The notes beneath the pieces were generated by a model. That model did no database searches. It was not told the DNA's origin and was given only the letters and a program-made list of their open reading frames with translations. A stretch of 64,000 nucleotides of DNA from Mobula hypostoma (Eukaryota): positions 95,730,001-95,794,000 of the forward strand of contig NC_086107.1 in NCBI RefSeq assembly GCF_963921235.1, given 5' to 3'. A program made the position numbers and the translations under genes. Shown piece after piece: positions 1 to 47,265 of the stretch (position 1 is its first letter; each line of letters opens with the position of its first letter).

Positions 1-2450
1 CCAAATTCCTGCTGCGTCTGTGGAAGATCCTGAGAATCTTCTGGAGAAGGGGGAAGATCCCAGAACAGTGGAGAGTGGCTGAAAGGGTGTGGATCCCGAA
101 GGAGGGAAAATGCCACCCAGATAGATCAGTTCCGCATCATCTCCCTGCTGTGTGTCGAGGGGAAGATCTTCTTCAGTGCAGTTTCTAACCGGCTGTGCAC
201 CTACCTAGCAAAGAACACCTATATTGATACATCAGTCCAGAAGGGTGGCATTTCAGGGATGCCGGGCTGTCTGGAGCACATCGGTGTGGTGACACAGCTC
301 ATCAGGGAGGCCAGAGAGAACAAGGGCAACCTGTCAGTGTTGTGGCTCGACCTGGCAAATGCATACGGCTCCATTCCGCACAAGCTGGTGCAGCTCACAC
401 TGACCAAATATCACGTCCCCAGCAGAATCAGAGACCTTATCGCCGATTATTACAGCAACTTCAGGATGAGGGTCTCTTCAGGAGCAATTACATCAACCTG
501 GCACAAGGTGGAGATCGGTATCATCACAGGGTGCACTATCTCAGTGACACTGTTCTCCCTCACCATGAACATGCTCACTAAGTCTGCTGAGCCAGAGTGC
601 AGAGCGCACAGAATGAATTCCGCTCAATGGCAACCACCTATCAGGGCATTCATGGATGACCTCACAGTCACCACAGAATCAGTCCCAGGCTGCCGGAGGA
701 TTCTGCAAGGGCTCGAAAAGCTGGTGGAGTGGGCCCGGATGCGTTTCAAACCTGCCAAATCAAGATTGATGTTGCTGAGGAAAGGGAAGGTGGAGAACAA
801 GTTCCGGTTCAGCATCGCAGGCACAGCCATCCCAACCATCACAGAAAAGCCAGTCAAGAGCTTAGGCAAAGTTTTTGACAGCTCTTTAAGGGACACAACA
901 TCCATCCAGGCAACCTGCACCGAGTTGGATGGCTGGCTGAAATCTGTGGACAAGTCGGGCCTACCTGGGAAGTTTAAAGCCTGGGTGTATCAGCATGGCA
1001 TTCTTCCCAGAATCCTGTGGCCCCTCCTCATCTATGCAGTTCCGATCTCGACAGTCGAAACCTTAGAGAGGAGGGTTAGCAACCACCTCAGGAGATGGCT
1101 GGGGCTGCCAAAGAGCCTGAGCAGCATCGCACTCTATGGACACCACAACAAACTGCAACTGCCCTTCAAATCCTTGGAGGAAGAATTCAAGGTAACAAGA
1201 GCCAGAGAAGTGCTACAGTATAGGGACTCAAGTGACCCGAAGGTGGCTAGAGCAGGGATCCAAGTAAGTACTGGCAGGAAGTGGAGGGCAGAGGAAGCTG
1301 TTCAGGAGGCAGAGGCGAGGCTGCGTCACAAGAGGCTGGTGGGAGTGGTCACACAAGGCCGAGCTGGGCTAGGATCCTTTCCAACTCCCGAAATGGACAC
1401 CAGAGGGAAGGAAAGGCGTCGTCTAGTTCAGGAAGTGGTGAAAGCAGTAGTGGAGGAGATAAGAACCTGCAAGGCGGTGGGAATGAAGCAACAGGGAGCT
1501 TGGACAAGATGGGAGAATGTGGTTGAGAGGAAAGTGACCTGGGCTGATTTTTGGAAAGCTGAACCACACCGCATCCAATTTCTCATCCAGGCAGTGTACG
1601 ATGCACTTCCAAGCCCATCAAACCTGCACACATGGGGCAAGGCGGAGTCATCTGCGTGCCCACTGTGCTCCAAGCGAGGAACCCTGGAGCACATCCTCAG
1701 CGGCTGTGCAAGGGCACTTGGTGAGGGACGGTACCGATGGAGGCATGATCAGGTCCTGAAGACCATCGCTGAAGCCGGAGTTGAGTGGGCGAAGCGGTCC
1801 CGACCCTCCAAGCAGACCATTGCCTTTATCAGAGCTGGGGAGCAGCCAATGCCTGCCAAAAGAACATCTGCAGGCACCCTGACCTCTGCAAGGGACTGGC
1901 AGCTGTTGGTGGACGTCAAAGGGCAGCTGAAGTTCCCCAACCATATCGCAGCCACCACCCTGCGACCAGACATTGTCCTAGTGTCTGAGTCGACTAAGCA
2001 AGTGGTGCTGCTGGAGCTGACAGTCCCATGGGAAGATAGCTTGGAGGAGGCCTTTGAAAGGAAGCTCTCCAAGTACGCAGGACTGGTCAGCAACTGTCAG
2101 CAGGCTGGATGGAGAGCGAGGTGTCTCCCAGTGAAGGTTGGTTGTAGGGGATTCGTAGCCCATTCTTTAGTTAGAGCCTTCAGCATTTTGGGTATTGAGG
2201 GAGAGAGGAAGAGGAGAGCCATCCGCGGTACCACCGATGCGGCAGAGAGGGCCTCAAGATGGCTGTGGCTCAAAAGAGGGGAGCCATGGAGTCATAAGTA
2301 GCTAGCCATCTGGACACAAGCTGGGGTCTGATCAGCCCCGGCTGAGTAACCTGGAGGAGGTTGTATGATGTTGAAAGACCCGAAACACCCGATGATTCCA
2401 GGAACATCACTGAAGATGTATCCAGAAACATCAATAGATGTATGTACACA
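1..2450 (+). mobile_element. RLE-type non-LTR retrotransposon (HERO/R2-group-like), 3' part with 3' UTR
   Basis: ORF 259-2301 carries RT, CCHC and restriction-like endonuclease motifs. RT-like coding continues to the window start, with a frameshift near 105. A short hairpin-rich 3' UTR follows the stop. Confidence 0.9.
259..2301 (+). CDS. Reverse transcriptase + CCHC zinc finger + restriction-like endonuclease (5'-incomplete)
   Basis: WLDLANAYGS, IITGCTIS, FMDD (RT); CPLC..TLEHILSGC (CCHC); RWRHD and RPDI..LELTVPWE (PD-(D/E)xK RLE). Confidence 0.9.
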   Translation: MPGCLEHIGVVTQLIREARENKGNLSVLWLDLANAYGSIPHKLVQLTLTKYHVPSRIRDLIADYYSNFRMRVSSGAITSTWHKVEIGIITGCTISVTLFSLTMNMLTKSAEPECRAHRMNSAQWQPPIRAFMDDLTVTTESVPGCRRILQGLEKLVEWARMRFKPAKSRLMLLRKGKVENKFRFSIAGTAIPTITEKPVKSLGKVFDSSLRDTTSIQATCTELDGWLKSVDKSGLPGKFKAWVYQHGILPRILWPLLIYAVPISTVETLERRVSNHLRRWLGLPKSLSSIALYGHHNKLQLPFKSLEEEFKVTRAREVLQYRDSSDPKVARAGIQVSTGRKWRAEEAVQEAEARLRHKRLVGVVTQGRAGLGSFPTPEMDTRGKERRRLVQEVVKAVVEEIRTCKAVGMKQQGAWTRWENVVERKVTWADFWKAEPHRIQFLIQAVYDALPSPSNLHTWGKAESSACPLCSKRGTLEHILSGCARALGEGRYRWRHDQVLKTIAEAGVEWAKRSRPSKQTIAFIRAGEQPMPAKRTSAGTLTSARDWQLLVDVKGQLKFPNHIAATTLRPDIVLVSESTKQVVLLELTVPWEDSLEEAFERKLSKYAGLVSNCQQAGWRARCLPVKVGCRGFVAHSLVRAFSILGIEGERKRRAIRGTTDAAERASRWLWLKRGEPWSHK

Positions 2451-3325
2451 GCTTAAATATGTGCTGTGTGCCTCCCGGCTACCGTTGCATTCTCCGCGAA
2501 TCGGTACAGTATCTGTCCGGGGCCCAGGGGTTGGGACCACTGGGGTGGTGGGATACGGGGGTGTCATCTCATCATTGAACAGGGCAGGCAGCTCATCTTC
2601 TCTTATGACTGCCCGCCTCGATGTCGAAGGTCCAGGTTTGTCATCTGCTGTGGCTGATGTGGAAGGCTTGCTTGACTGCTGAGCCTCACGCATTTTTCTG
2701 TCACACAGTTCTTTGTAAGGACTCAAACCATCCTGCAAATATCCCCTAAACCTACGTACCCTTTCAAAATTAAAGTCGTACTTTATCATTGCAGTGAAAA
2801 TCTCACACAGTTGCTGGACGACTTCACTTTCGGTCCGTTCGCTACTGAATTTAGTTTCGATTGTTATCCTTTCCTCTTCCAATTGCATCAGCTCTTCATC
2901 TGGCAGTTCTTGGTCATGGGATGCCAAAACCTCTTCAACATCATCTTCGTCAACTTCCACAAGCCAAACTCACTTTGTCCTTGCTTCGTTCACCACGATT
3001 GAAACGTTTAATTATGTCTAGTTTTACGCTGTGTAACATCCTTACGAGCTCTTTCAGGCTTTTCTGACACCTTAGAACTCATCTTGCTAACGGCTGTTCA
3101 ATGCAACGTGTTTAAGCAATACCGGCGAGAATGCAGTTCCGAATCCGGGGGAGAGTGGCTGCTCGGGGCGCACTGCCCTTTATCACGTGCTGATTTTTTA
3201 TCGCACGCTGCCTTTCTTCGTGACAGTGAAAACACCTTCCGAAAGCGAAAACAGGGTACTAATGTAGGTCTTTCGTAACAGTGAGGTTTCATAAAGTGAA
3301 CGTTCGAAAAGCGGGGGAGCACCTG
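2451..3325 (-). mobile_element. Tigger/pogo-like DNA transposon deletion derivative
   Basis: Minus-strand terminus TA|CAGGTGCTCCCCCGCTTTTCGAACG. Acidic C-terminal transposase-like remnant EVDEDDVEEVLASHDQELPDEELMQLEEER. Confidence 0.65.
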
Positions 3326-3872
3326 TATCACAGAAACACATGACAAACCAAGACTGAAAAACTGACAAAACCACATAATTATAACATATAGTTACAACAG
3401 TGCAAAGCAATACCGTAATTTGATAAGAACAGACCATGGGCATGGTAAAGTCTCAAAGTCTCTCAAAAGTCCCATCATCTCACGCAGACGGTAAACCTCC
3501 AGCGCCGCAAACTTGCCGATGCAGCATCCTGGAAGCATCCGACCACAGTCCGACTCCGAGTCCGTCCGAAAACTCCGAGCCTCCGACCAGCTCTCCAACA
3601 CTGAGAACCGAGCACCATCTCTGCCGAGTGCTTCGACCCCGGCCCCGGCAACAGGCAATAGGCAAAGCCAAGGATTTGGGGCCTTCCCCTCCAGAGGTTC
3701 TCGATTGCGCAGTAGCAGCGGCAGCGAAGCGGGCATTTCAGAAGTTTCTCCAGATGTTCCTCCATGCTTCTTCATGTCTGTCTCTACCAAATCAGGATTG
3801 TGCACGGCATCCTACTTCACAGATACAATATCATTCGGAACGACCGTGCACGCTGTGTTGCGCCGCCATCTT
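3326..3872 (-). mobile_element. Non-autonomous LINE-derived/SINE-like element with AAGATGGCG 5' end
   Basis: Ends in GCCATCTT on the plus strand. Clearly related to the copy at 55645-56190. Confidence 0.55.
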
Positions 3873-5775
3873 CTGAAGATTATAAGGCTAGCAGGATGGA
3901 GCTTAAGAAAGAAATTAGGAGAGCTGGAAGGGACCATGAGAAGGCATTGGTGGACAGGATTAAGGAAAACCCCAAGGCATTCTACAAGTATGTGAAGAGC
4001 AAGAGGATAAGACGTGAGAGAATAGGACCAATCAAGTGTGACAGTGGAAAAGTGTGTATGGAACTGAAGGAGATAGCAGAGGTACTTAATGAGTATTTTG
4101 TTTCAGTATTCACTACAGAAAAGGATACCTTACAGTGAACTGAAAAGCTTGACCATGTAGGTATTGAGAAAGAAGATGTGCTGGGACTTTTGGAAAGCAT
4201 CAAGTTGGATGAGTCACCGGAACCGGACGAAATGTACCCCAGGCTACTGTGGGAGGTGAGGGAGGAGATTGCTGAGCCTCTGGCGATGATCTTTGCATCA
4301 TCAGTGGGGATGAGAGGGGTTCCAGAGGATTGGAGGGTTGTGGATGTTGTTCCATTGTTCAAGAAAGAGAGTAGAGATAGCTCAGGAAATATAGACCAGT
4401 GAGTCTTACTTCAGTGGTTGGTAAGTTGATGGAGAAGATTCTGAATTTATGAACAGAATTTATGAGCAGAATTTATGAACATTTGGAAAGGCGTAATATG
4501 ATTAGGAATAGTCAGCACGGCTTTGTGAAAGGCAGGTCATGCCTTATAAGCCTGATTGAATTTTTTGAAAATATGACTAAAAACATTGATGAAGGTAGAG
4601 CAGTAGATGTAGTGTATATGGATTTCAGGAAGGCATTGACAAGGTACCCGATGCAAGGCTTATTGAGAAAGTAAGGAGGCATGGGATCCAAGGGCATATT
4701 GCTTTGTGGATCCAGAAATGGCTTGCCCACAGAAGGCAAAGAGTGGTTGTAGACGGGTCATACTCTGCATGGAGGTTGGTCACCAGTGGTGTGCCTCAGG
4801 GATCTGTTCTGGGAATCCTGCTCTTCGTGATTTTTATAAATGACTTGGATGAAGAAGCAGAGGGATTGGTTAGTAAATTTGCTGATGACACAAAGGTTAG
4901 GGGAGTTGTGGATAGTGTGAAGGGCTGTCAGATGTTACAGCAGGACATTGATAGGATGCAAAATTGGGCTGAGAAGTGGCAGATGGAGTTCAACCCAGAT
5001 AAGTGTGTAGTGGTTCATTTTGGTAGATCAAATATGATGGCAGAATATGGTATTAATGGTAAGACTCTTGGCAGTGTGGAGGATCAGAGGAATCTTGGGG
5101 TCCGAGTCCATAGGACACTCAAACCTGCTGCGCAGATTGATTCTGTGGTTAAGAAAGCAAGCGGTGCATTGGCCTTCATCAATCTTGGGACTGAGTTTAG
5201 GAGCCGAGAGGTAATGTTGCAGCTCTACTGATCAAACCCCACTTGGAGTAGAGCTCAGTTCTGGTCACCTCACTCCAGGAAGGATGTGGAAACCATAGAA
5301 AGGGTGCAGAGGAGATTTACGAGGATGTTGCCTGGATTGGCAAGCATGCCTTATGAGAATAGGTTGAGTGAACTCGGCCTTTTCTCCTTGGAGCGACGGA
5401 GGATGAGAGGTGACCTGATAGAGGTGTATAAGATGATGAGAGGCATTGATTGTGTGGACAGTCAGAGGCTTTTTCCCAGGGCTGAAATGGCTAGCATGAG
5501 AGGGCACAGTTTTGAGGTGCTTGGGAGTAGGTACAGAGAAGATGTCAGGGGTAAGTTTTTTTTCGCAGAGAGTGGTGAGTGCGTGGAACGGGCTGCCGGC
5601 AACGGTGGTGGAGGCGGATACGATTGGGTCTTTTAAGAGACTCCTGGACAGGTATATGGAGCTTAGAAAAATAGAGGGCTATGGGTAACCCAAAGTAATT
5701 TCTATGGTAAGGACATGTTTGGCACAGCTTTGTGTGCTGAAGGGCCTGTATTGTGCTGTAAGTTTTCTATGTTTC
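3873..5775 (+). mobile_element. CR1 LINE, 5'-truncated and frameshifted ORF2 (RT)
   Basis: KENPKAFYKY, QHGFVKGRSC, GVPQGSVLG, KFADD, ERVQRRFTRM fragments; TTCTATG tail. Confidence 0.9.
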
Positions 5776-6386
5776 TTCCCAGTGAATCTCCTTTCACAGC
5801 CCATTCAGGAAGAGTGTTCCATTTCACAACTCTCTGCCTGAAAACATCTTTTCCTGGCCTCAGCACCTTGTCCTCTGCCAATGGAATTAATTTATCTGTA
5901 TTCTTCTGGTACATTTCAGATTGTGGTGCCTCTGTAAATCTCCTTCACTGTTCAAAGAACAAACCCAACTTCCCCAGACTCTACACAGTCCTCTAAATCA
6001 TCTTTCCAACCCTACCCGTCCTCCTGACCCTTGCTCAGTTACATCACTCTGCTCTCTCTGTCCTTCCACCTTTTCCCCTTCTCTGACCCACATCCAATGC
6101 TCTCTCTTTCTTGCCCTCAACCTCCACTTGCCTCCTTTATTGTGCCCTCCCCTCCTTACCCCTATTCCAGCCCTTCCTTGACTCCCATTCCCTCTGATGC
6201 ACTGTCCCCCGCTGACCCATTCATTCCCAACGTTAACCCCCAACTGTTGACTGCTTGGACCACCCACTGCCCACACCCTCCTCTGCTGGGCCCCTTCTCT
6301 CTTACACACAGAGCGCCAAATCCATCAATCCAGAGCCACTGTTTGAAATTATAAGGTATACAAGCAGGTAGTGTGTTTAAGAGGAA

Positions 6387-6392
6387 TTTATT
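6387..6392 (-). terminator. Polyadenylation signal of the PTH-like gene
   Basis: AATAAA on the minus strand about 90 nt after the TAA stop at 6482-6480. Confidence 0.7.
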
Positions 6393-6479
6393 GGCGTTCA
6401 GGAGCGAATCAGAAGTGTGAGAACAGAGACACCACCTGTCCGCGCTGGATGTCCGTGCTCCCTTGGTCTCTCCACCGCT

Positions 6480-6493
6480 TTAACTATTACATC
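6480..6493 (-). CDS. PTH-like gene: terminal coding exon ((G)CNS-stop)
   Basis: Acceptor ctcttcttgtccag|GA TGT AAT AGT TAA after a 103-bp intron, followed by AATAAA. Confidence 0.7.
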
Positions 6494-8105
6494 CTGGACA
6501 AGAAGAGTCACGTTTTAGTTTGAGAACTTGTCTATATTCTGTTAAAAAGTGAGAAGTAATTTTGTAAAAGCAAAACAGTTACTATGTCACACTGACCTGG
6601 CATATCAGGCGTCAGTCGGCACAGTTTCTCCTTAATATATTGTCTGCGTGCTTCTTCTTCCCTCGCCTTTGCTATTTCGTTCATTAGCACAATTTCAGCA
6701 GTTTCCCTCTTTGCTGCCTCGTTGGGGCCTGGCTTCAGAAAATCAGCGAACCAGCCATCGGCTGGGAGCTCCTCAATTATCTGGGCCCTAGACGTGGACA
6801 AAAACAGCCATCCTGAGCCTGCCAGTGAGGGAATCAGGCCTTGCGGAGTACTGTCTGCAGGAAGGGAAGGGTAGGGCACGGTGTGTCTAAATGGTGGAGG
6901 GTGTCAAAGTTTTGAAAGATGAGGGAAGTGAGGAGGATGAGGAACTGGCACCAATGGTTGGTGGACCAGATTGCCCACTCACATTGCAGCCATGGGGACC
7001 CCTTCACTACTGGCCCTCCATTTCAGGAGCATCCACCCAGGGGAGATGTATTTTATTCGTACTGCCAGTGTCAGTTCATACCTCCCACAATACTGCCTCA
7101 TGTTCCTGCACACCTCCCTCAGTATTGTTCCCTGACACTACCCACCTCCCTCAGAAATGCACACAAAAGCACTACACCACTCCCTCAGAACTGCCCCCTC
7201 TACTGCCCATCTCCCTCAGAACTGCCCCTGACACTGCCCACCTCCCACAGTAATGCCCACCTGTTGCTGAACAGCTCCCTCAGTACCGAGCTCCGGCAGT
7301 AGCCACTTTCCTGACTAATGCCCCGGACACTTCCCTCCTCCCACAGTATTGCCCCAGACACTTATCACCATCCTCCCCCCCCACCCCCCTCAGTACTACA
7401 ACCGTACACTGTCCACCCTCCTCAGTAATGCACTCAAGACACTGCTTCCATCCCGCACTACTGCCCCTGACATTGACTAACTCCTGATTACAGCACCCCC
7501 GCAGAAACTACACACCACCCTCTTAATGGTCCTCCGTTGCTGATCACCTCCCTTGTTACTGCCTCGCCCCAAGTCTGCCCCACTCCCTCAGCCCCGTGCA
7601 TTTTCGGAGCAATGGAAACGTCCTGTAAATTCTTGGTTCCAACTCTCTCCCAGGAAACTGTGTTGGAAGTGTTTGGCTTTGTCAAGTGTCAGTCTGATGC
7701 TCTTCATAACAACTGACACGTGTCAATCACAGAGTGCCTGACGATGAGACAAATATCTCTGTCAGGGCCTGTTTTATGTCTCCCCTGGTTTCCCACAATG
7801 CACTTGGTTAGGCCCCCGAGGGATTCAACCACCTTTTTGTGAGTTAAGACCACCAGCACTTCCTCTCTCTTCTCGTGGACATGATCCAAGCTATCACTAT
7901 TCTCTCCCTGAATTCCCGAGCTCCCATGACCTTCTCCACATTTAATACAGACGGCACGTGGGCAACAACAACTGTTGCTGAGGGGATTTTACCTCTCTGA
8001 GTGTCGAGCCGAGGCAGGAACAGCTTCAGCACACGGGGGTAGGATACAGCTCAGTCCCAGTACCAGTCCCATCAGCAGCACTCGAGCATAGGACCAAGGC
8101 TCCAT
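6480..8105 (-). CDS. Parathyroid-hormone-family prepropeptide, 105 aa, spliced: join(8105-7993, 6787-6597, 6493-6480)
   Basis: Canonical GT-AG introns with pyrimidine tracts and matching phases (2, then 1). Protein: MEPWSYARVLLMGLVLGLSCILPPCAEA-VPASARHSERAQIIEELPADGWFADFLKPGPNEAAKR-ETAEIVLMNEIAKAREEEARRQYIKEKLCRLTPDMPGCNS*. Mature part matches PTH1-28 at E4, I5, L7, M8, K13, R20, K27, L28. Confidence 0.85.
6597..6787 (-). CDS. PTH-like gene: pro-region + KR + mature peptide exon
   Basis: Acceptor ctgtttttgtccacgtctag|G, donor CCAG|gtcagt; 191 bp. KR codons at 6711-6706; mature peptide starts at 6705. Confidence 0.85.
7075..7500. repeat. Degenerate C-rich tandem repeat in a PTH-like gene intron
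   Basis: Recurring cctccc(t/a)cagta..gcccc.gacact units. Confidence 0.6.
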
Positions 8106-8108
8106 GAC
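7993..8108 (-). CDS. PTH-like gene: signal-peptide exon (ATG at 8105-8103)
   Basis: Acceptor ttgtttctctcacag|GTCATGG (good Kozak context) and donor GAG|gtaaaa. Hydrophobic core VLLMGLVLGLSCIL and A-E-A cleavage motif. Confidence 0.85.
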
Positions 8109-9172
8109 CTGTGAGAGAAACAAGAAACAACGGCCTGAATGTTCGTTTCAGGCCCGCGGTAAAACACAGGGCAGGTTGGGGCTGCAGCTTGTGTGAAACC
8201 AGTGGAGTTACATTCTGCCAACGGGACTGGTTCTTCCTCAAGGATGTAGCTGGCAATCGTGGCTGATCCACTTTCCTCTCAACCCCATTCTCCTGGCCTC
8301 TTCCTATAACCTTTCATGCCCTAACTAATCATGAACCTATCAACCTCTGCCTTAAATACACCCAATGACCTGGCCTCCACAGCCACCTGTGGCAACGAAT
8401 TCCACAGATTTGTCATCGTCTAGTTACAGAAATTCCTCCTTATCTCTGTTCTAAATGAATGTCCCTCTATTCTGAGGTTGTGCCCTCTTGCTTGACCGTC
8501 CCCCACTATAGGAAACATCCTCTCCATATCCACTCTATCTAGGTCTTTCAATATTTAATGAGATCCCTCCTCATTCTTCTAAATTCCAGCGAGTTCAGGC
8601 CCAGAACCATCAAATTCATGAACTTCTGGCATAATACTACTGTTTTCCACAGTGAAGACTAATGCAAAATATTTATTTAGTTCATCTGTCATTCCTTTGT
8701 CCCCCATTACTACCTCTCCAGCATTATTTTCCAGTGGTCTGATATCTACTCTCGCCTCCCTTTTACTCTTTATGTATTTGAAAATAAAAAAAGTTTGATA
8801 TCCTCTTTGATATTATTGGCTTGCTTACCTTCATATTTCATCTTTTCCCTCCAGTAGGCTATTTAGTTGCCTTCTGTTGGTTTTTAAAAGCTTCCCACTA
8901 ATGTTTGTTCTATGATGTGCCCTCTCTTTTGCTTTTCTGATGGATTTGACTTCCCATGTCAGCCATGATTGTGTCATTTTGCCTTTAGAATACTACTTGT
9001 TTTTTGGGATACTGTATATCAAGCCTGTGTCTTCCAGATTGTTCTCAGAAACTCCAGCCATTGCTGCTCTGCCATCATCCCTGCTAGTGTTCCCTCCCAA
9101 TCAAATTTGGCCAGCTCCTCTCTCATGTCCCTGTAATTCCCTTAACTCCATAATACTGATACATTTGACTTT

Positions 9173-10708
9173 TGTCACAATGGGGCGGGGGCATACAGCG
9201 CAAGGGTGGACCCAAGTGCAAGACACATCTTGTGAGGTTAATTAAATTGAGTTTATTGTTTGATGCCAGGAGAGCAAAGCAGGAGCAGGAATAGCGAACC
9301 GGACAAGGACTCAGGACTACAACTAGGCTGGGACGAGGGTCTGGGCTACGACTCGGAATTGGATCCCAGAACTAGAGGCGACATGAAGAGGTTACAGTAT
9401 GGACTCCGAGCCAGGGACTGGGCAAGGACCCAGTACCTGGGTCTTGCCTCGGGCTTGGACCCCAGAACCAGGCATGGACATGACATGGGCTAGGGAGAGG
9501 AGGAACATGGAAAGACAGAGCCTCGATCTCAGCAGAGCAGGTACATGGAACCATGGACACATATACAGAACACAGAGTCGGGACCTCTCCTTGGGTACAG
9601 GACAAAAGGCTGGGACTCACACACAGAACAGAGAGCTGGGACCCCTCCTTGGGTACAGGACATAGGGCCGGGACCCATGACCCCCTGCAGGGCGATGGCA
9701 AGACGGCTTGACTTACCCCATGGAGGTGAGGACAAGACAAGACAAAACATAACCTACCGTGGGGCAACGGCAAGATGGCCAGACTTACCCCACGGAGGCG
9801 AGGACAAGACAAGACCAACACAAAAAAATACCGGACAGTACCTATCTAGCTCCGGCGATAGAACTAGACTGAAGTGCAGGCAAGGGCTGCAGACGAGGGC
9901 TAGAGGCGAGAGGGGCAGAGAAGGGATTCAGACAGGGCGGTAGGACAGGAATCACTGACCGCCAGGGCCAGGACTTGACTCGGAACTTGGATGCCGCCAG
10001 GGCTGGGACTCGACTCGGAACCGACTCGGAACTTGGATGCTGCCAGGGCCGGGGCTCGACTTGGAACTTGGATGCCGCCAGGGCAGGGAGTTGACTCGGA
10101 ACTTGGATGCCGCCAGGGACGGGACTTGACTCAGTACGTGGATGCCGCCAGGGCCAGCACTTGACTTGGAACTTGGATGCTGCCAGGGTCAGGACTTGAC
10201 TCGGTACATGGATGCTGCCAGGGCCAGAACTTGACTGGGTATTTGGATGCCCCCGGAGCCAGGACTTGACTTGGAGCCTCCGTTAGTGGTGAGCTCTCGA
10301 CTCGGCCCGGGAACAGTAGACAGCGGTTCTTGATTCCCTCCGGCAGGTTAACTGACGGACCCACCTCGGTGAGGAAACTTTGCAGGCTCGCTTTGGCGAG
10401 GTAACTTGACAGGGTTGCTCCGGTGAGGAAAGGCGAATTACCGGCACTCGCTTCGGGCGGACACTAGGCTTGCTCCAGCCAGATGACATTGGCACACCGT
10501 ACCTTTGGTGACTTTGCAAACACTCTCGCGCTGAACAGCTGAAAGCCGGAGACTATAAACTACCGGTTCAGTCGAGAGTAAATTGCCTCCAATCACCAAA
10601 GCCGAGGGACACAGGAAAACAGGGAATCAAAGGGAAACAGGGAGTCAACGATCCAGATCATAACATAAACAAAGTAAATTGAAAGGGACCCCAATCCAGA
10701 CCATGACA
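9173..10708. mobile_element. Solo LTR (Gypsy-like)
   Basis: Termini TGTCA...TGACA with a perfect 5-bp target-site duplication ACTTT (9168-9172 and 10709-10713). Confidence 0.8.
9960..10275. repeat. ~35-bp tandem repeat inside the solo LTR
   Basis: About 9 units of ggacttgactcggaacttggatgccgccagggcc. Confidence 0.85.
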
Positions 10709-11911
10709 ACTTTAGTTTCTCCCTCTCAAATTTCTGGGTGAATTCTGTCATATTATGATCACTGCCTCCTAAGGGTCCCTTTACCTAAAGCTCTCTAATC
10801 AAATCCTGTCCATTACAGAAAACCCAATCCAGAATAGCTGATCCCCTCGTGGGCTCAACCACAAATTGCTCTAAAAAGCCATGTCATAAGCATTCTTCAA
10901 ATTCTCTCTTGAGATCCAGCACCAACCTAGTTTTCCCAATCTACCTGCATATTACAGTCCCCCATGACTATTGTAACATTGCCCTTTTGACATGCCTTTT
11001 CTATCACCCATTGTAATTTGCAGCCAACTTCCTGACTACTTTTCAGTGGCCTCTATATAACTCCCACGAGGGTCTTTTTACCCTTGCAGTTTCTTATTTC
11101 TACCTACAAGGATTCTATATCTTCCAATCCTATGTCACCTCTTTCTAAGGATTTAATTCCATTTTTTACCAACAGAGCCCTGCCACCCCTCTGCTGATTT
11201 GCCTGACCTTTTGATACACTGTGGATTCTTGGATGTTAAACTCCCAGCTATAATCTTCTTTCAGCCATGACTCAGTGATGCCCACAGCATCATACCTGCC
11301 AATCTCTAAGTGCATACAAGATCATCTACTTTATTCCATAAACTGCATGCCTTCAATTATAATGCCTTCAGTTCTGTATTCATCATCCTTTTCAATTTTT
11401 TCCCCATGTTACATTTCAACTAGTCCCACTGACTGCGATTTTGTCGTAACATCTGCCTGTCCTTCCTCACAGTCTCACTACACACTGTTTGTGCTTGTAT
11501 ATCAACTGCCCCATCCTCATCCCTATGACTCTGGTTTTCACCGCCCTGTAAAATTAGTTTAAACCCTCCCCAACACCTCTAGCAAACCTGTCCACAAGGT
11601 CCCTCTCGGGTTCAGGTGTAGCCCATTTCTTTTGTACAGGTCATATATTCCCCAGAAGGGATACCAATAATCCAGAAATATGAACCCCTGCCCTCTGCAC
11701 CAGTTCCTCAACCACACATTAATCTGCCAAATCATCCTATTCTTACATGGCACAGGCAGCAATCCAGAGATTACTACCCTGGAGGTCCTGTTTTTCAGCT
11801 TTCTACCTAACTCCCTAAACTTTCTTGTCAAGAATTCCTCCCTTTTCCTACCCATGTCATTGGTGCCAATATGTACTATGACTGCCCCTTTAGAACACTG
11901 TGGAGCTGATT

Positions 11912-12217
11912 GTGTTGGCACGTGGTCAAGTGGTTAAGGCATCGGTCTAGTGATCTGAAGGTCGTTAGTTCGAACCTCAGCTGAGGCAGTGTGTTGTGTC
12001 CTTGAGCAAGGCACTGAAATACACATTGCTCTGCGACGACACTGGTGCCAAGCTGTATTGGCCCTAGTGCCCTTGCCTTGGTCAACATCGGTGGCGTGGA
12101 GAGGGGAGACTTGCAGCATGGGCAACTGCCAGTCTTCCATACAACCTTGCCCAGGCCTGCGCCCTGGAAACCTTCCAAGGTGCAAGTCCATGGTCTCACG
12201 AGACTAGCAGATGCCTT
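11912..12217 (+). mobile_element. tRNA-derived SINE (family A)
   Basis: A box TGGTCAAGTGG, B box GTTCGAAC, body tgtgtccttgagcaaggcac. Five copies in the window. Confidence 0.85.
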
Positions 12218-17890: not shown

Positions 17891-20744
17891 CTGGAGGTAT
17901 CTACATAGTCATTCAAACAAACGCAAAGTTCACGACAGACAAATGGCAAGAGAATTAGAAACATAGAAACATAGAAAATAGGTACAGGAGTAGGCCATTT
18001 GGCCCTTCGAGCCTGCACCGCCATTCAGTATGATCATAGCTGATCATCCAACTCTGAACCCTGTACCAGCCTTCCCTCCATACCCCCTGATCCCTTTAGC
18101 CACAAGGGCCATATCTAACTCCCTCTTAAGTATAGCCAATGAACTGGCCTCAACTGTTTCCTGTGGCAGAGAATTCCATAGATTCACCACTCTCTGTGTG
18201 AAGAAGATTTTCCTCATCTTGGTCCTAAAAGGCTTCCCCTTTGTCCTTAAACTGTGACCCCTCGTTCTGGACTTCCCCAACATCGGGATCAATCTTCCTG
18301 CATCTAGCCTGTCCAATCGCTTTAGGATTTTATACGTTTCAATAAGATACCCCCTCAATCTTCTAAATTCCAGCGAGTATAAGCCTAGTCGATCCAGTCT
18401 TTCATCATATGAAAGTCCTGCCATCCCAGGAATCAATCTGGTGAACCTTCTTTGTACTCCCTCTATGGCAAGAATGTCTTTCCTCAGATTAGGGGACCAA
18501 AACTGCACACAATACTCCAGGTGTGGTCTCACCAAGGCCTTGTACAACTGCAGTAGTACCTCCCTGCTCTTGTACTCGAATCCTCTTGCTATGAATGCCA
18601 GCATACCATTCGCCTTTTTCACCACCTGCTGTACCTGCATGCCCACTTTCAATGACTGGTGTATAATGACACCCAGGTCTCATTGCACCTCCCCTTTTCC
18701 TAATTGGCCCCCATTCAGATAATAATCTGTTTTCCTGTTTTTGCCACAAAAGTGGATAACCTCACATTTATCCACATTAAATTGCATCTGCCATGAATTT
18801 GCCCACTCACCTAACCTATCCAAGTCACCCTGCATCCTCTTAGCATCCTCCTCACAGCTAACACTGCTGCCCAGCTTCGTGTCATCCGCAAACTTGGAGA
18901 TGCTGCATTTAATTCCCTCATCTAAGTCATTACTATATATTGTAAACAACTGGGGTCCCAGCACTGAGCCTTGCGGTACCCCACTAGTCACTGCCTGCCA
19001 TTCTGAAAAGGTCCCGTTTATTCCTACTCTTTGCTTCCTGTCTGCCAACCAATTCTCTATCTACATCAATACCATTCCCCCAATACCGTGTGCTTTAAGT
19101 TTGCACACTAATCTCCTGTGTGGGACCGTGTCAAAAGCCTTTTGAAAATCCAAATATACCACATCCACTGGTTCTCCCCCATCCACCCTACTAGTTACAT
19201 CCTCAAAAAATCCTATGAGATTCGTCAGACATGACTTTCCTTTCACAAATCCATACTGACTTTGTCCGATGATTTCACCACTTTCCAAATGTGCTGTTAT
19301 CACATCTTTGATAACTGACTCTAGCATTTTCCCCACCACCGACGTTAGGCTAATCGGTCTATAATTCCCCGGTTTTTCTCTCCCTCCTTTTTTAAAAAGC
19401 GGGGTTACATTAGCCACCCTCCAATCCTCAGAAACTAGTCCAGAATCTAAAGAGTTATGAAAAATTATCACTAATGCATCCACTATTTCTTGGGCCACTT
19501 CCTTAAGCATTCTGGGATGCAGACCATCTGGCCCTGGGGATTTATCTGCCTTTAATCCCTTCAATTTACCTAATACCACTTCCCGACTAACATGTATTTC
19601 CCTCAGTTCCCCCATCTCACTAGACTCTCGGTCCCCTACTATTTCCGAAAGGTTATTTATGTCCTCTTTAGTGAAGACAGAACCAAAGTAGTTATTCAAT
19701 TGGTCTGCCATGTCCTTGTTCCCCATGATCAATTCACCTGTTTCTGACTGTAAGGAACCTACATTTGTCTTAACCAAACTTTTTCTTTTCACATATCTAT
19801 AAAAGCTTTTACAGGTTCCCTGCCAGTTTTCTCTCGTAATTTTTTTTTTCCTTTCCTAATCAGATTTCCTCGTGTTTGAGATTTACCAGGGTACTGCCTG
19901 GTTTAGCGGGTATGGATTTTGATCAGAGATTAAGGGAGCTAGGGCTTTACTCTTTGGAGAGGAGGAGGATGATAGGATACATGATAGAGGTGTACAAGAT
20001 ATTAAGAGGAATAGATAGAGTGGATAGCCTTCGCCTCTTCCCCAGGGCACCACTGCTCAATACGAGGGGACATGGCTTTAAGGTAAGGGGTGGGAAGTTC
20101 AAGGGGGATATTAGAGGAAGGTTTTTTACTCAGAGAGTGGTTGGTGCGTGGAATGCACTGCCTGAGTCAGTGGTGGAGGCAGATACACTAGTGAGGTTTA
20201 AGAGACTACTAGACAGGTACATGGAGGAATTTAAGGTGGGGGGTTATATGGGAGTCAGGGTTTCAGGGTCGGCACAACATTGTGGGCTGAAGGGCCTGTA
20301 CTGTGCTGTACTATTCTATGTTAAACCCTTTGTCCTCTTCTGCTGGACTCTGAATTTCTCCCAGTCCTCAGGTGTGCTGCTTTTTCTGGCTAACTTGTAT
20401 GTTTCTTCTTTGGAATTGATACTATCCCTAATTTCCCTCGTCAGCCATGGGTGCACTACCTTCCCTGGTTTATTCTTTTTCCAAACTGGGATGAACAATT
20501 GTTGTAGTTCATCCATGCGATCTTTAAATGCTTGCCATTGCATATCCACCATCAACCCTTTAAGTATCATTTGCCAGTCTATCTTAGCTAATTCATGTCT
20601 CATACCTTCAAAGTTCCCTCCTCAAAATTATGTGCTGATGGGTCCATATTTTGGTGTGATGTCAGAACGCTGGTGCAGCTGGTGGACCCACAGAACCCTG
20701 CTATCAGACGCACCGTTGACTCAATAAACTCCAAGCACAGTAAG
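17891..20744 (+). pseudogene. GYS: Glycogen synthase pseudogene, exon-2 equivalent, split by a CR1 insertion (17891-17957 and 20626-20744)
   Basis: Acceptor tttctgtctccag|; GGIYIVIQTNAKFTTDKWQENY/VLMGPYF, frameshift, DVRTLVQLVDPQNPAIRRTVDSINSKHSK, versus recalled GYS1 [49 protein letters not shown]. Donor is mutated (AAG|ct). AATTA flanks the insertion on both sides. Confidence 0.9.
17958..20620 (-). mobile_element. CR1 LINE (5'-truncated ORF2) with a nested opposite-strand CR1 3' end at ~19877-20320
   Basis: ORFs 19061-19792, 18680-19048 and 18044-18652 carry RT motifs (YLDFQKAFD, GVPQGSVLGP, FADD); (TTCTATGT)n tail. Confidence 0.92.
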
Positions 20745-28189: not shown

Positions 28190-29420
28190 TGCATTATGAT
28201 ATGCAAGGAGGAGATTGGCAAGCTCCTGATTCAGCGTCAGTGCAGTGTGTTCTGCCAACATTTCTCACAGTGCGTTCTTTAGACTCTGGACAAACTTTCT
28301 GCCAAACCATGGTACGGTGCAGATGTAATGTGTCTAATTCCATTCATTTTCAGGAATGGCTGGAACTGCTCCTCAACAAACTGTGGTCCATTTTGCGCAC
28401 CAGATCTTGTAAAGAGGCCTCTCAACACATCTACAGTGTGTGAGGCTGTTGGGCACACTTCTGGCCACTTTGTAGCTGCATCCATTACTGCCAAGAAATT
28501 TGTGCCCATGAATGGTCCAACAAAATCCACATGTGTTATCTGCCAGGGCAATGCAGGCCATTCCCAGGGATGGACAGGGCAGCTCTTGGCATCTTTTGTG
28601 AAGTGTTGGCATCTCAACCAGTGCATGACAAACAGTTCGATCTGCTGATCTATCCCAGGCCACCAGACAAAGCTTTGAACCAACAAAAATGGCTGTCTAG
28701 TAGCTCCTCCAGCACTTTAGGTCCCGGTTTGGATGGTAATGACAACTCTCAATTCTCCGCATAAGGCAAACCCCAACAAGGCCAAGTTCATCCTGGCACT
28801 GATTTGCATCAGGGAGAATGTATCAAGAGGAATGTCCTCTTTTGTAAATTTTTCAGGTATTTCCTTTTCTAAGGATAGACAGGACAATCCATAGGCATTT
28901 CCATGATTAGTTGTCCTCTTGAATCCAATCTTGTAATTGCATCCTCCAAGAAACAGAGCCCATCTCTGCATTTGTGTTGTTGCTGTTGGTGGAATTCTGT
29001 GGATTGAAACTGGACACTTGTGGTTGGTCAGTAATGAGCATAAACTCTCTCCATACAAGTACTGGTTGAAACGTTTTACACCCCAAACCAAACTCAAGGC
29101 TTCTCCATCGATCTGTTCATAACTTTTCTCTGCAGCGGTAAAGGAACGTGATGCAAAAGGCTCTGGGGCATTCACTTCCATCACTCATAACACGTGACAT
29201 GGTGGCGCCTATACATTTGGTATAGATATAGGCACTTTCACAGGCAAGTTTCACTGGATGATGTGGATAATAATGTGTCAGTACTGTGTCTGATATCGCC
29301 ATTTCCTTTATCTTTTGGAAAGCCACCTCACACTGCTTTGTCCATTGCCATTTCTTCCCAATCTGTAGTAATGAGTTGAAGGGGTAGAACACAGTCGCTA
29401 ATTTGGCAGGAACCTGTTCT
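28190..29420 (-). mobile_element. Gypsy pol fragment (RNase H + integrase), decayed
   Basis: FASRS...EKSYEQIDGEALSLVWGVKRF; VWWPGID, HVDFVGPF, NGIRHITSAPYH. Confidence 0.85.
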
Positions 29421-30344
29421 ATATTCCATGTTCTGTGTGGTGTTATAGAAAGGATGTCAATAAGCAAGAAAGAGTGGAAAGAAGACTTGTGAACTTGAGG
29501 GCCTGACTTAAAGGGAAAGATTGGGCAGACAAGGATTTTAAGCCTTGGAGCATACGAGACAGAAATGTTACCTTACAGAGGTCTATAAAACCATGAGGGA
29601 CAGAGATGAGTGAACACACACAGACTTTTCCCAGGGAAAAGGGAAACAAAGACTGGAAAACATGTGTTTAACTTGAGAAGAAAAAGATTTAAAAGGGACT
29701 CGGGGTGGGGGGGGGGAGTCAACTTCTTTAAGCAGTGGCTGGTGAGTATATGGAATGAGCTGTCAGGAAGTGGTTGAGGCAGATACAATAATAACATTCA
29801 AAAGGCACCTGGACAGGTACGTGGATAGGAAATGTTTAGAGGAATATGGTCATCTTGGATGAGTTGGGCCAAAGGGCCTGTTTCTGTGCTGTATAAGTCT
29901 ACATCTCCATCCTTTCTCCCTCTGTCTGCCCTTTCCTCTGCTGCTGTAACCATCATTTGTGCCTTTGTTACCTGGAGCTGACTGTTTTAGCCACCCTCCT
30001 TCTTCCCTCCATCTCAAGAGGTCCTGCCACCCAGCCCTCTAATTCCCATCACCATTTACACATCTTATCCCTCTCCTCACCAATCCTCATCATTCCTGGT
30101 TCAGCAGAGCCTCAGTTTTAAAATTACTATCCTTGATTTTCCGAATCCTCTCTGATCTCTTTGCTCCGTCAGGCCACAAATTCTCCATGATTTCTCGCCT
30201 CTCTTGATTCTGGGCTCTGAACATCTCCAAATGTCAGTCCCCAGGACCCGTGAACTGGGATTCCCACCCCAATCCTCTCAGATGCTCCTGAAATGCCAAA
30301 GTTCCAAACAGTGCCTTATCAGAAATGGAAGGATGTTAACACAC

Positions 30345-41866: not shown

Positions 41867-44483
41867 ATAGAACATAGAAAACTTACAGCACAATACAGGC
41901 CCTTCAGCCCACAAAGCTGTGCCGAACATGTCCTTACCGTAGAAATTACTAGGCTTACCATAGCCCTCTATTTTTCTAAGCTCCATGTACCTATCCAGGA
42001 GTCTCTTAAAAGACCCTATTGTATCCAACTCCACCACCGTTGCTGGCAGCCCATTCCACGCACTCACCACTCTCTGCATAAAAAACTTACCCCTGACATC
42101 TCCTCTGTACCTACTTCCAAGCACCTTAAAACTGTGCCCTCTCACGCTAGCCATTTCAGCCCTTGGAAAAAGCCTCTGACCGTCCACACGATCAATGCCT
42201 CTCATCATCTTATACACCTCTATCAGGTCACCTCTCATCCTCTGTCGCTCCAAGGAGAAAACATAGAAACATAGAAAATAGGTGCAGGAGTAGGCCATTC
42301 GGCCCTTCGAGCCTGCACCGCCATTTATTATGATCATGGCTGATCATCCAACTCAGAACCCAGCCTTCCCTCCATACCCCCTGACCCCTGTAGCCACAAG
42401 GGCCATATCTAACTTCCTTTTAAACATAGCTAATGAACTGGCCTCAACAGTTTGCTGTGGCAGAGAATTCCACAGATTCACCACTCTCTGTGTGAAGAAG
42501 TTTTTCCTAACCTCGGTCCTAAAAGGCTTCCCCTCTATCCTCAAACTGTGATCCCTCGTTCTAGACCTCCCCAACATCGGGAACAATCTTCCCGCATCTA
42601 GCCTGTCCAATCCCTTTAGGATCTTATACGTTTCAATCAGATCCCCCCTCAATCTTCTAAATTCCAACGAGTACAAGCCCAGTTCATCCAGTCTTTCTTC
42701 ATATGAAAGACCTGCCATCCCAGGAATCAATCTGGTGAACCTTCTTTGTACTCCCTCTATGGCAAAGATGTCTTTCCTCAGATTAGGGGACCAAAACTGC
42801 ACACAATACTCCAGGTGTGGTCTCACCAAGGCCTTGTACAACTGCAGTAGTACCTCCCTGCTCCTGTACTCAAATCCTCTCGCTATAAATGCCAGCATAC
42901 CGTTCGCCTTTTTCACCGCCTGCTGTACCTGCATGCCCACTTTCAATGACTGGTGTATAATGACACCCAGGTCTCGTTGCACCTCCCCTTTTCCTAATCG
43001 GCCACCATTCAGATAATAATCTGTTTTCCTATTTTTGCCACCAAAGTGGATAACTTCACATTTATCCACATTAAATTGCATCTGCCATGAGTTTGCCCAC
43101 TCACCCAACCTATCCAAGTCACCCTGCATCCTCTTAGCATCCTCCTCACTGCTAACACTGCCACCCAGCTTCGTGTCATCCGCAAACTTGGAGATGCTGC
43201 ATTTAATTCCCTCATCCAAGTCATTAATATATATTGTAAACAACTGGGGTCCCAGCACTGAGCCTTGCGGTACCCCACTAGTCACCGCCTGCCATTCTGA
43301 AAAGGTCCCGTTTATTCCCACTCTTTGCTTCCTGTCTGCTAACCAATTCTCCACCCACACCAATACCTTACCCCCAATACCGTGTGCTTTAAGTTTGCAC
43401 ACTAATCTCCTGTGTGGGACCTTGTCAAAAGCCTTTTGAAATTCCAAATATACCACATCCACTGGTTCTCCCCTATCCACTCTACTAGTTACATCCTCAA
43501 AAAATTCTATGAGATTCGTCAGACATGATTTTCCTTTCACAAATCCATGCTGACTTTGTCCGATCATTTCACCGCTTTCCAAATGTGCTGTTATCACATC
43601 CTTGATAACTGACTCCAGCAGTTTCCCCACCACCGACGTTAGGCTAACCGGCCTATAATTCCCCGGTTTCTCTCTCCCTCCTTTTTTAAAAAGTGGAGTT
43701 ACATTAGCCACCCTCCAATCCTCAGGAACTAGTCCAGAATCTAACGAGTTTTGAAAAATTATCACTAATGCATCCACTATTTCTTGGGCCACTTCCTTAA
43801 GCACTCTGGGATGCAGACCATCTGGCCCTGGGGATTTATCTGCCTTCAATCCCTTCAATTTACCTAACACCACTTCCCTACTAACATGTATTTCGCTCAG
43901 TTCCTCCATCTCACTGGACCCTCTGTCCCTTACTATTTCTGGAAGATTATTTATGTCCTCCTTAGTGAAGACAGAACCAAAGTAATTATTCAATTGGTCT
44001 GCCATGTCCTTGCTCCCCATAATCAATTCACCTGTTTCTGTTTGCAGGGGACCTACATTTGTCTTTATCAGTCTTTTCCTTTTTACATATCTATAAAAGC
44101 TTTTACAGTCCGTTTTTATGTTCTCTGCCAGTTTTCTCTCATAATCTTTTTTCCCCTTCCTAATTAAGCCCTTTGTCCTCCTCTGCTGAACTCTGAATTT
44201 CTCCCAGTCCTCAGGTGAGCCACTTTCTCTGGCTAATTTGTATGCTTCTTCTTTGGAATTGATACTATCCCTAATTTCTCTTGTCAGCCACGGGTGCACT
44301 ACCTTCCTTGATTTATTCTTTTGCCAAACTGGGATGAACAATTGTTGTAGTTCATCCATGCAACCCAAGTTCACTCGACCTGTTCTCATAGGCATGCTCC
44401 CCAATCTAGGCAACATCCTTGTAAATCTCCTTTGCACCCTTTCTATGGTTTCCACATCCTTCCTTTGGTGAGGCGACCAGAAC
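41867..44483 (-). mobile_element. Nested CR1s: a young 5'-truncated CR1 (~42258-44362, open RT frame) inserted into another CR1 3' fragment
   Basis: ORF 42353-44518 has complete RT motifs. Its N-terminus (FWSPHQRKDVETIERVQRRF) belongs to the host CR1, which resumes at 42257-41867. Confidence 0.9.
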
Positions 44484-44912
44484 TCATCTCCTTCTACCTT
44501 AGGCCATGAACTTATCAATCACCCCTGATGAGTTATTAACTTCGAACTTTCTGCATAATCATTCAAAGAGTTGAACTGCACATGCATGTAACTCATATAA
44601 CTCATTTCCTTCTACCTTACGCCACAAACTTGTCAATCACCTCTGCTGTGGACACCTTCTGGAGGTCTAAGATCGTATGCTCTACGACCACTGGACTTAG
44701 TGTGTAAATGTAGGAGGGGACTATGTTGAAAAATAAAAGAGCTAGGTTTTCTAAAATTGACTCCTTCTACCTTAGGCCACAAACCTATCAATCACCCCTT
44801 GTGTGTAGTTTAGCACCCCCATTATTTTTTTTGTAATTAACATTTTATTTATATTAGTGTTACTTAAATTTATTGGTGAGATACTGTTTTTTTAAATTGT
44901 ATTTACCCTGTC

Positions 44913-46314: not shown

Positions 46315-47265
46315 CAGAATCAGATTTAATATCACCAGCATATGTTGTGAGATTTGTTAACTTTGCAGCAGCAGCACAATGCAATACATGATAAATATAG
46401 GAAAAAATTGAAATAGTAATTATATATATTAAATTATTAGGTTAAAATAAGTAGTGCAAAAACAGAAATTAAAAAAAAATTAGTGAGGTAGTGTTTATGG
46501 GTTCCAAGTCCATTCAGAAATCCAATGGCAGAGGGGAAGAAGCTGTTCCTGAATCACTGATTGTGTGCCTTCAGGCTCCTGTACCTCCTTCCCAGCTGTA
46601 AGAGGGAAGGTCCTGGGTGGTGGGGGTCCTTCCTGAGGCATCGCTCCTTGAAGATGTTTTGGATACTACGGAGGCTGGTACCCATGATGGAGCTGACTAA
46701 TTTTACAACTTTCTGCAACTTACTTCGACCTTGTGAAGTAGACCCCACTCCCTCCCCCCATACCAGCCAATGATGCTCTCCATGGTACATCTGTAGAAGT
46801 TTTCAAGTGCTTTAGGTGACAAACCAAATTTCCTCAAACTCCTAATAAAATATAGCTGCTGTCTTGCCTTCTTTATAGCTGCATCAATATGCTGCGACCA
46901 GGTTAGGTCCTCAGAGATACAGACACCCAGGAACTTGAAATTGCTCACTCTCTCCACTATGAGGATTGGTCTTGCTAAGTTGTTGAGCGCAAAGTTGTTG
47001 CTACGACCCCACTCAAGTAGCTGATATCTCACTCCTGTACGCCCTCTCGACACCATCTGAGATATTGGCAACAATGGTTGTATCATCAGTGAACTTCTAG
47101 ATGGCATTTGAGCTGTGCCTGGCCACACAGTCACGAGTGTAGAACAGTAGGCAAAGCACACATCCCTGTGGTGCACCAATGTTGACTGTCAGCAAGGTGG
47201 AGATGTTATTTCCAATCCACACTGATTGTGGACTTACACTCAAGAAGCTGAGGATCCAGTTTCAG
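46315..47265 (-). mobile_element. Rex1/Babar-like LINE 3' part
   Basis: FKFLGVCISEDLTWSQHIDAAIKKARQQLYFIRSL, FYRCTMESI. Confidence 0.8.

Follow-up and report, generated by a model that had tools for sequence, protein, structure and literature searches.

Gene Structure and Transcript Evidence

The minus strand of the window, i.e., the whole 64,000-nt stretch of DNA analysed here, carries a gene that has at least four exons and encodes a predicted cysteine-looped paralogue of the brain hormone TIP39 (tuberoinfundibular peptide of 39 residues, or PTH2) (Table 1). Exon 2, bordered by an acceptor AG at 8110-8109 and a donor GT at 7992-7991, comprises 3 nt of 5' UTR followed, from the ATG at 8105-8103, by 37 codons plus 2 nt, and codes for the signal peptide and the start of the pro-region. 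The peptide exon (exon 3) starts 1205 nt downstream of this signal-peptide exon, within an open frame at 6903..6532 of the minus strand. It completes a split Arg codon and then encodes 27 aa of pro-region, with Lys-Arg (6711-6706) at the end, and residues 1-36 of the peptide, its last base being the first base of the Gly37 codon. The exon closes with TGC (Cys29, 6622-6620) CGA CTG ACG CCT GAT ATG CCA G, which reads Leu-Cys-Arg-Leu-Thr-Pro-Asp-Met-Pro-G, and is followed by GTCAGT, with the GT donor at 6596-6595.

The terminal intron splits codon 37 of the mature peptide and has a pyrimidine tract ahead of its acceptor AG (6495-6494). The coding part of the terminal exon is 14 nt long including the stop codon, namely GA, TGT for Cys38 (6491-6489), AAT for Asn, AGT for Ser, and TAA (6482-6480); an AATAAA signal was located by script at 6392-6387 in its 3' UTR. 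A 31-nt tandem repeat is situated at 7106-7258, inside intron 2.

Four small public sequencing runs (X1-X4) were available, for which the label "RNA?" is a guess; X1, X2, and X3 were taken as cDNA only since their contigs are spliced. Runs X1 and X2 come from organism A (study P1) and X3 from organism B (study P2), and the contigs were placed on positions 6250-8350. The joint 6493/6597, which skips 103 nt with GT..AG borders, is found in contigs of three of the four runs (X1, X2, and X3, i.e., two studies and two organisms), and the same three runs contain the joint 6787/7993, which skips 1205 nt, again with GT..AG borders; contigs of X4 do not cover the gene. Five letters fit on either side of the 103-nt joint, which leaves the mRNA sequence unaffected. 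The X1 and X2 pieces show no differences from the window, and the exon-2 piece of X2 matches the window at both positions that distinguish the paralogue from the canonical copy. Contig depth is 193 in X3. One X2 contig runs 163 nt beyond 8108, representing a 5' UTR exon that is not placed on the window.

No processed (joined) copy of the gene exists in the assembly, where a protein search with exon 3 returned the paralogue locus and one chance-level match (E 9.3), and hence the spliced contigs must be cDNA. Thus, the gene is confirmed as spliced and expressed in two organisms. The exon structure proposed in the first-pass annotation is borne out by the spliced contigs of X1, X2, and X3, all of which use the predicted terminal exon rather than a different one; contigs and sequence also agree that the second cysteine comes from a separate exon with 14 coding nucleotides. 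Calling this a dedicated micro-exon was an overstatement, as it is an ordinary 3' terminal exon of about 119 nt that is tiny only in its coding part. As to the alternative tail (PGQCDIVTV...) expected from intron retention, it is a true contiguous translation, with a stop after 22 further codons, but retention is seen in none of the contigs, which leave room for it at a minor level.

Table 1. Features of the paralogue and the blocks it shares with the canonical TIP39 locus, in window coordinates.
Feature	Positions	Strand	Length	Evidence or content
Exon 2	7993..8108	minus		X2 and X3 contig pieces end at 8108 and 7992/7993
Intron 2	6788..7992	minus	1205 nt	GT..AG; joint in X1, X2, X3; dinucleotides script-checked
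Exon 3 (peptide exon)	6597..6787	minus	191 nt	Contig pieces 6596-6786 in X1, X2, X3
Terminal intron	6494..6596	minus	103 nt	GT..AG; joint in X1, X2, X3
Terminal exon (exon 4)	6375..6493	minus	~119 nt	Contig starts at 6375 (X3), 6381 (X1), 6404 (X2)
Shared exon 2 block	7738..8258	minus	521 nt	Exon 2 and ~150 nt of each flank; 95% identical to canonical locus
Shared 3' UTR end and downstream flank	5775..6430	minus		76% identical over 705 aligned columns to canonical TIP39 locus

We also considered a repeat insertion as the origin of the terminal intron. The last 76 nt of the intron together with the following GATG are 78% like one other site of the genome (C21:87719067-87719146); this single weak extra match, with no PTH-like sequence upstream of it, does not support such an origin.

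The Precursor and Its Mature Peptide

The script translation of the joined exons is a precursor of 105 aa with Cys at positions 20, 25, 94, and 103 and Lys-Arg at positions 64-65. The mature peptide comprises the 40 aa after Lys-Arg and contains Cys29 and Cys38; both the cysteine pair and the Lys-Arg-bounded 40-aa peptide of the first-pass annotation therefore stand in the exon translation across the observed joint. These two residues are the only cysteines outside the predicted signal peptide, an even number, and are situated nine residues apart, after a proline. Judging from the hydrophobic leader before Ala-Glu-Ala, Cys20 and Cys25 probably leave with the signal peptide. Cysteine is absent from all eight other PTH-family mature peptides that were compared, i.e., the whole mature peptides of four elasmobranch TIP39s and the first 36 residues of the four PTH/PTHrP-like loci of this genome.

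The peptide helix is very charged and weakly amphipathic, with a hydrophobic moment of 0.14-0.24, features that argue against groove binding of the classical PTH-like kind. In helix geometry, Cys29 is placed about 100 degrees from Leu28, off the face formed by Ile24, Leu28, and Leu31, so that closing a ring with Cys38 would not necessarily interfere with binding.

Descent from the Canonical TIP39 Locus

The canonical TIP39 gene is the sole locus in the genome above the cut-off of the PF14980 profile (62.9 bits; C45:95800101-95800244, plus strand). It is located about 6 kb past the end of the window, about 62 kb from the paralogue and on the opposite strand. Its peptide exon has a stop codon directly after the 36-aa peptide and an AATAAA signal 57 nt later.

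Homologous blocks are collinear between the two loci over the stretch that reaches from exon 2 to a point 700 nt beyond the poly(A) signal. Exon 2 itself differs from its canonical counterpart at 2 of 116 nt (98% identity), with one amino-acid difference. The intron before exon 3 retains three short blocks of 72-80% identity, and identity in the pro-region is 68%. The UTR of the terminal exon is homologous to the canonical TIP39 3' UTR downstream of 6430. A 451-nt part of the downstream flank is 81% identical between the copies and occurs at only two sites in the 3.48-Gb genome, both of them TIP39-type loci; the presence of only two genome copies rules out a transposon as the source of this flank.

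The exon-3 acceptor TCTAG/G is found in the canonical copy as well, where it precedes an open frame of 182 codons, and this frame fits the TIP39 precursors of Chiloscyllium (179-191 aa). Since the canonical and Chiloscyllium forms are longer, the paralogue has a large deletion in the pro-region.

At the protein level, exon 3 is similar to the canonical exon in BLASTP (E 1e-7; 17 of 49 residues identical, with one 2-residue gap just after Lys-Arg) and to an alignment of four elasmobranch TIP39s, namely that of this genome and, as entries P0001-P0003, one of Narcine and two of Chiloscyllium, in hhalign (90.9% probability, E 1.2e-6, 50 columns). The similarity to TIP39 precursors is thus significant, with the pro-region and Lys-Arg site contributing most of the signal. 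The first-pass annotation was fair in placing the peptide in the PTH family, with descent from TIP39 indicated by the shared locus blocks, BLASTP, and hhalign. Judged from these comparisons, the gene is an inverted, head-to-head local duplicate of TIP39/PTH2, sharing common descent with it.

The mature part alone gives a fainter signal. It has no BLASTP match to TIP39 at E ≤ 100, and its Smith-Waterman score of 35 (shuffle mean 18.4, SD 3.7) is reached by 4 of 5000 shuffles. Of the PTH-like loci, L014 resembles the peptide in register just as closely as TIP39 does (z 4.9; 5 of 3000 shuffles), whereas L011, L012, and L013 show no similarity to it. A Pfam scan (hmmscan) of the exon translations returned no families at E ≤ 10. 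Genome-wide, PF14980 has nine matches at E ≤ 10, none at the paralogue locus, which is below the cut-off of the TIP39 profile, and PF01279 has four matches (L011-L014), again none of them at the paralogue locus. Residue-level homology of the hormone part to TIP39 rests on protein similarity and is weakly based, because the DNA similarity of this part is at chance level and third codon positions agree at 10 of 31 sites.

The protein search of this genome yielded no further paralogue of the novel peptide. No synteny markers emerged from a scan of 60 window ORFs of at least 70 aa, chosen among the 150 longest of 272; the only matches recorded in these 60 are retroelement domains, one GDSL-lipase-like ORF, and one ALKBH8_N-like ORF.

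Mosaic Divergence and Probable Gene Conversion

Divergence between the two copies changes abruptly along the locus. Between the Lys-Arg site and 6430 the DNA shows no resemblance to the canonical copy: the local alignment score of 9 equals the shuffle mean (595 of 1000 shuffles), whereas the neighbouring flank scores 84 in the same test. The dissimilar segment, which exceeds its canonical counterpart by 146 nt, comprises the mature coding sequence, the terminal intron, the 14 coding nucleotides, and 50 nt of UTR. In the BLASTP register, third codon positions of the mature part are identical at 10 of 31 sites (pS 0.69). In a global DNA alignment, the 3' UTR of the paralogue seemed to match canonical coding sequence, an arrangement not supported by local alignment with shuffles. 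Ectopic conversion from the PTH-like loci is ruled out by the lack of any DNA match to them at E < 0.1.

A single duplication followed by neutral decay cannot give adjacent segments of 98%, about 80%, and chance-level identity. The 521-nt block of 95% identity points to recent gene conversion. The likeliest history suggested by these patterns is that of an old duplicate in which gene conversion would have homogenised the signal exon recently and the flanks earlier, the hormone segment being kept apart. With a signal exon at 98%, flanks at about 80%, and an unalignable hormone segment between them, the locus would illustrate cleanly how selection can work against gene conversion.

Comparison of Two Organisms

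Organism B differs from organism A by about 3%, which is too close for a real conservation test, and is the only relative that was compared. Among the exon-3 differences listed, the mature part has a single silent change (6664), whereas the pro-region has one silent change (6727) and three replacements (6735, 6752, and 6758). Behind 6760, organism B also has an insertion of 30 nt that keeps the frame, and its translation is similar to the Ser/Thr-rich stretch of the canonical pro-region. The one replacement listed in exon 2 (8041) is to the residue of the canonical copy. These lists cover the differences that could be placed; those near the ends of the X3 pieces are not (2 of 3 in 6375-6492, 1 of 6 in 6596-6786, and 4 of 5 in 7992-8108), and hence the Cys38 codon, and possibly residues 30-37, could differ in organism B.

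Proposed Mode of Action

Starting from the established splicing, open frame, precursor layout, and TIP39 homology, we consider it reasonably probable that the locus is an expressed inverted duplicate of TIP39 coding for a 105-aa secreted precursor, and that its product is a 40-mer with a Cys29-Cys38 ring acting on a PTH-type receptor with altered selectivity or efficacy. Removal of the signal peptide, probably after Ala-Glu-Ala, would take away the other two cysteines, and a prohormone convertase would cut after Lys-Arg, freeing a helical 40-residue peptide. Pro33 would end the helix, the tail would fold back, and Cys38 from the terminal exon would bond to Cys29 in a 10-residue ring. The peptide would then act on a PTH-type class B receptor, and the segment coding for it would have remained unlike TIP39 even as gene conversion evened out the signal exon and flanks.

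The receptor side of this proposal draws on a model of TIP39 bound to its receptor PTH2R. According to that study, the ectodomain contacts Arg22, Arg23, Trp25, Leu26, Tyr29, Met30, and Leu33 of TIP39, residues 15 and 22 are its conserved basic residues, and the residue at the main anchor, Trp versus Phe, separates PTH2R agonists from PTHrP, which is inactive (PMC2991341). With a 2-residue offset, the paralogue has Lys13, Arg20, Arg21, Tyr23, Ile24, Lys27, Leu28, and Leu31 at the corresponding positions, so that Arg22/Arg23/Trp25/Leu26/Met30/Leu33 of TIP39 become Arg, Arg, Tyr, Ile, Leu, and Leu, and Asp6/Asp7 become Glu-Ile. Altered selectivity or efficacy is proposed for two reasons, namely that Tyr replaces Trp at the main anchor and that the Ala-Asp-Asp motif is missing from the N-terminus; set against the receptor model, the two changes together suggest a changed receptor selectivity.

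A wider and more tentative reading, possible but somewhat doubtful in our view, is that elasmobranchs keep a second, old gene of the PTH2 type adjacent to TIP39, whose product would be the first disulfide-capped ligand of the PTH family, with its own selectivity or with antagonist or biased activity, and would be kept distinct by selection. The disulfide-closed cap would have been created by ancestral loss of the stop codon together with a new terminal intron. Selection would keep the hormone-coding island distinct, with repeated conversion of the signal exon and flanks of both copies.

Alternative Explanations

The locus could instead be a transcribed but decaying or neutral TIP39 duplicate, whose frame is open by luck and which yields no bioactive peptide, the cysteine pair having arisen by chance when the stop codon was lost and a splice happened to form. 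We regard this as unlikely. It would agree with the extreme divergence of the hormone part, with the loss of both the Ala-Asp-Asp start and the Leu-Leu-Ala-Ala-Leu hydrophobic stretch of elasmobranch TIP39s, and with the absence of relatives from large protein libraries; the pro-region, moreover, has an indel between organisms A and B and lacks sequence present in the canonical copy. Decay would not be expected, however, to leave the ORF, the signal exon, the Lys-Arg site, three GT..AG introns, and the poly(A) signal all intact, nor to spare what look like the family anchor residues, and the gene is expressed in two species. The listed differences between A and B that replace residues or shift length fall in the pro-region and not in the peptide. 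Finally, the mature part has diverged far more than the neutral flanks, which drift after a single duplication cannot produce.

More improbable still is the proposal that the mature segment (about 6708-6431) is foreign, or arose de novo, inside a duplicated TIP39 scaffold and encodes a new peptide for a receptor outside the PTH type. DNA similarity is indeed absent in exactly this segment, with homologous blocks on either side and the 146-nt excess between them; BLASTP of the mature parts gives no match, and part of the terminal intron resembles sequence on another chromosome. Against this, the similarity of the mature part to TIP39 (4/5000) and to the PTH-like paralogue (5/3000) beats nearly all shuffles, it falls on receptor-contact positions known from the receptor model, and the genome contains no donor for the coding part elsewhere.

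That the peptide is made but its cysteines form no intramolecular loop, being reduced, joined in intermolecular dimers, or paired with a carrier, seems to us very improbable: a ring of eight intervening residues with two Pro is possible rather than obligatory, but exactly two Cys are left after signal removal, nine residues apart and after a helix-breaking Pro, and Cys pairs so placed in secreted peptides are normally oxidised.

Novelty and Significance of the Gene

A word-indexed search of 5.8 billion proteins returned no matches to the exon-3 region (with a query that included 22 intronic residues) and none between the signal exon and longer proteins. Likewise, HMMER with the 63-aa exon-3 translation gave no matches at E ≤ 0.001 over 1.84 billion representatives. 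Both of these large libraries do contain elasmobranch TIP39s, and an orthologue outside one close relative was found in neither of them; the ESM Atlas gave no usable match. In the literature, supplements aside, we found no TIP39 paralogue and no Cys-bearing peptide of the PTH family. A 2017 review gives a single PTH2 (TIP39) gene for each vertebrate genome that has one (PMC5640766). A second TIP39-type gene with a two-Cys tail split by an intron may therefore be new to the PTH family, although an unnamed database model of it may exist.

If the proposed reading holds, a medically interesting hormone family would gain one more member, an expressed second gene derived from TIP39 whose peptide has a looped C-terminus. 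This gene would also be a natural test of what a cap does to the receptor-binding helix of class B GPCR ligands, with a bearing on the stability and selectivity of PTH analogues, and a clear case in which duplication was followed by the rise of a terminal intron and a new tail on the peptide.

Comparison with Known Systems

A parallel in layout comes from outside the family. At the C-terminus of the precursor of melanin-concentrating hormone is a peptide whose disulfide closes a ring of 10 residues, and the second Cys of this ring comes from the last, short coding exon. We found nothing in the literature on this aspect of the PMCH gene structure (the last-exon Cys). In contrast to the paralogue, this precursor belongs to a different family, and the two have no sequence similarity.

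With the PTH-like locus L014, the peptide shares Glu4, Leu7, Met8, Arg20, Ile24, and Lys25 in register. The PTH-like genes are located on the same chromosome but 91 Mb off, whereas the paralogue is linked to TIP39, and 27 codons stand between its intron and the Lys-Arg that follows, where PTH and PTHrP have the intron adjoining this site. A Met-His-Asp motif is present in all PTH peptides of the elephant shark according to PMC4354418; residues 8-10 of the paralogue are Met-Asn-Glu instead, and it has no match to PF01279. The same paper reports downstream coding exons past the mature-peptide exon, within the family, only for PTHrP (PMC4354418).

TIP39/PTH2 itself shares with the paralogue its chromosomal neighbourhood, the collinear blocks, and a near-identical signal exon. 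Both precursors combine a signal, a pro-region, the Trp-x-x-Asp-x-Leu-x-Pro motif, Lys-Arg, and a C-terminal peptide of 36-40 aa, with what looks like the same pattern of basic and hydrophobic anchors in the C-terminal helix. The pro-region of the paralogue is, however, much shorter than in the Chiloscyllium TIP39 precursors. TIP39 is described as a conserved three-exon gene in PMC4354418; the canonical copy has its stop codon inside the peptide exon, and the paralogue departs from the three-exon layout. Unlike TIP39, the paralogue has an N-terminus that is two residues shorter and starts without Ala-Asp-Asp, a Tyr in place of the Trp anchor, a charged core, and an extra C-terminal tail with two Cys and an extra intron.

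Exon-2 block common to the two TIP39-type copies

The novel TIP39 duplicate and the canonical TIP39 gene share a 521-nt block with sharp edges that surrounds exon 2 and is 95% identical between the copies, the exon and its near flanks reaching 98%, vs 72–81% for the remaining noncoding parts. Judged from these sequences, the block looks like a recent gene-conversion tract. At position 8041, organism B, a close relative, carries the canonical-type base. A repeat element lies at the upstream edge of the block; its summed contig depth was very high (thousands) in all four public runs, and many of the contigs were just 85–90% alike.

Genomic surroundings and related loci

Retroelement ORFs dominate the window, with reverse transcriptase (RVT_1), endonuclease, RNase H, and integrase domains. 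A scan of 60 ORFs revealed no recognisable host gene in the interval that separates the TIP39-type copies; isolated Pfam matches in ORFs to a GDSL-like lipase and to the ALKBH8 N-terminal domain may represent either host-gene exons or parts of mobile elements.

The stretch on C21 that resembles the terminal intron of the novel gene spans the last 76 nt of this intron and the first four exon bases, stopping exactly at TTGTCCAG followed by GATG, and the same phase would likewise give Gly-Cys. No PTH-like sequence was found within 1.5 kb upstream of this match.

The genome contains four PTH/PTHrP-type (PF01279) loci. Two of them, L012 and L014, form a tandem pair 14 kb apart on the chromosome of both TIP39-type genes, at a distance of about 91 Mb from the latter.

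Coordinates of the features (G000, own genome; L003 and L015, stretches with the canonical locus)
Feature	Location	Strand	Remarks
Exon-2 block	window 7738-8258; L015 2890-3406
Repeat element	window 8238-8350
Tandem repeat	window 7106-7258		period 31, 4.8 copies; intron 2 of novel gene
Tandem repeat	window 9959-10275		period 35, 8.7 copies; upstream of novel gene
Retroelement ORFs	window 34-2298, 4599-5228, 19064-19855, 28282-29572, 42356-44518, 48392-51175
GDSL-like lipase	window 11562-11933	-	E 3e-10
ALKBH8 N-terminal domain	window 46706-47188	-	E 3e-9
Canonical TIP39 gene	L003 1102-1650; L015 about 2890-6250; G000:C45:95796890-95800250	+	just past window end
Terminal-intron match	L019 1501-1580; G000:C21:87719067-87719146		81 columns, 78% identity
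PF01279, L012	G000:C45:4079768-4079908
PF01279, L014	G000:C45:4093486-4093650
PF01279, L011	C36:26754001-26754315
PF01279, L013	C5:122163356-122163478

Predicted pro-region of canonical TIP39

On reading the sequence, the peptide exon of the canonical gene sits within a 182-codon open frame that begins at a TCTAG/G acceptor, the same as that of the novel gene. Since the frame is open from this acceptor, canonical TIP39 is predicted to have a long pro-region, similarly to the Chiloscyllium TIP39 proteins of 179–191 aa.
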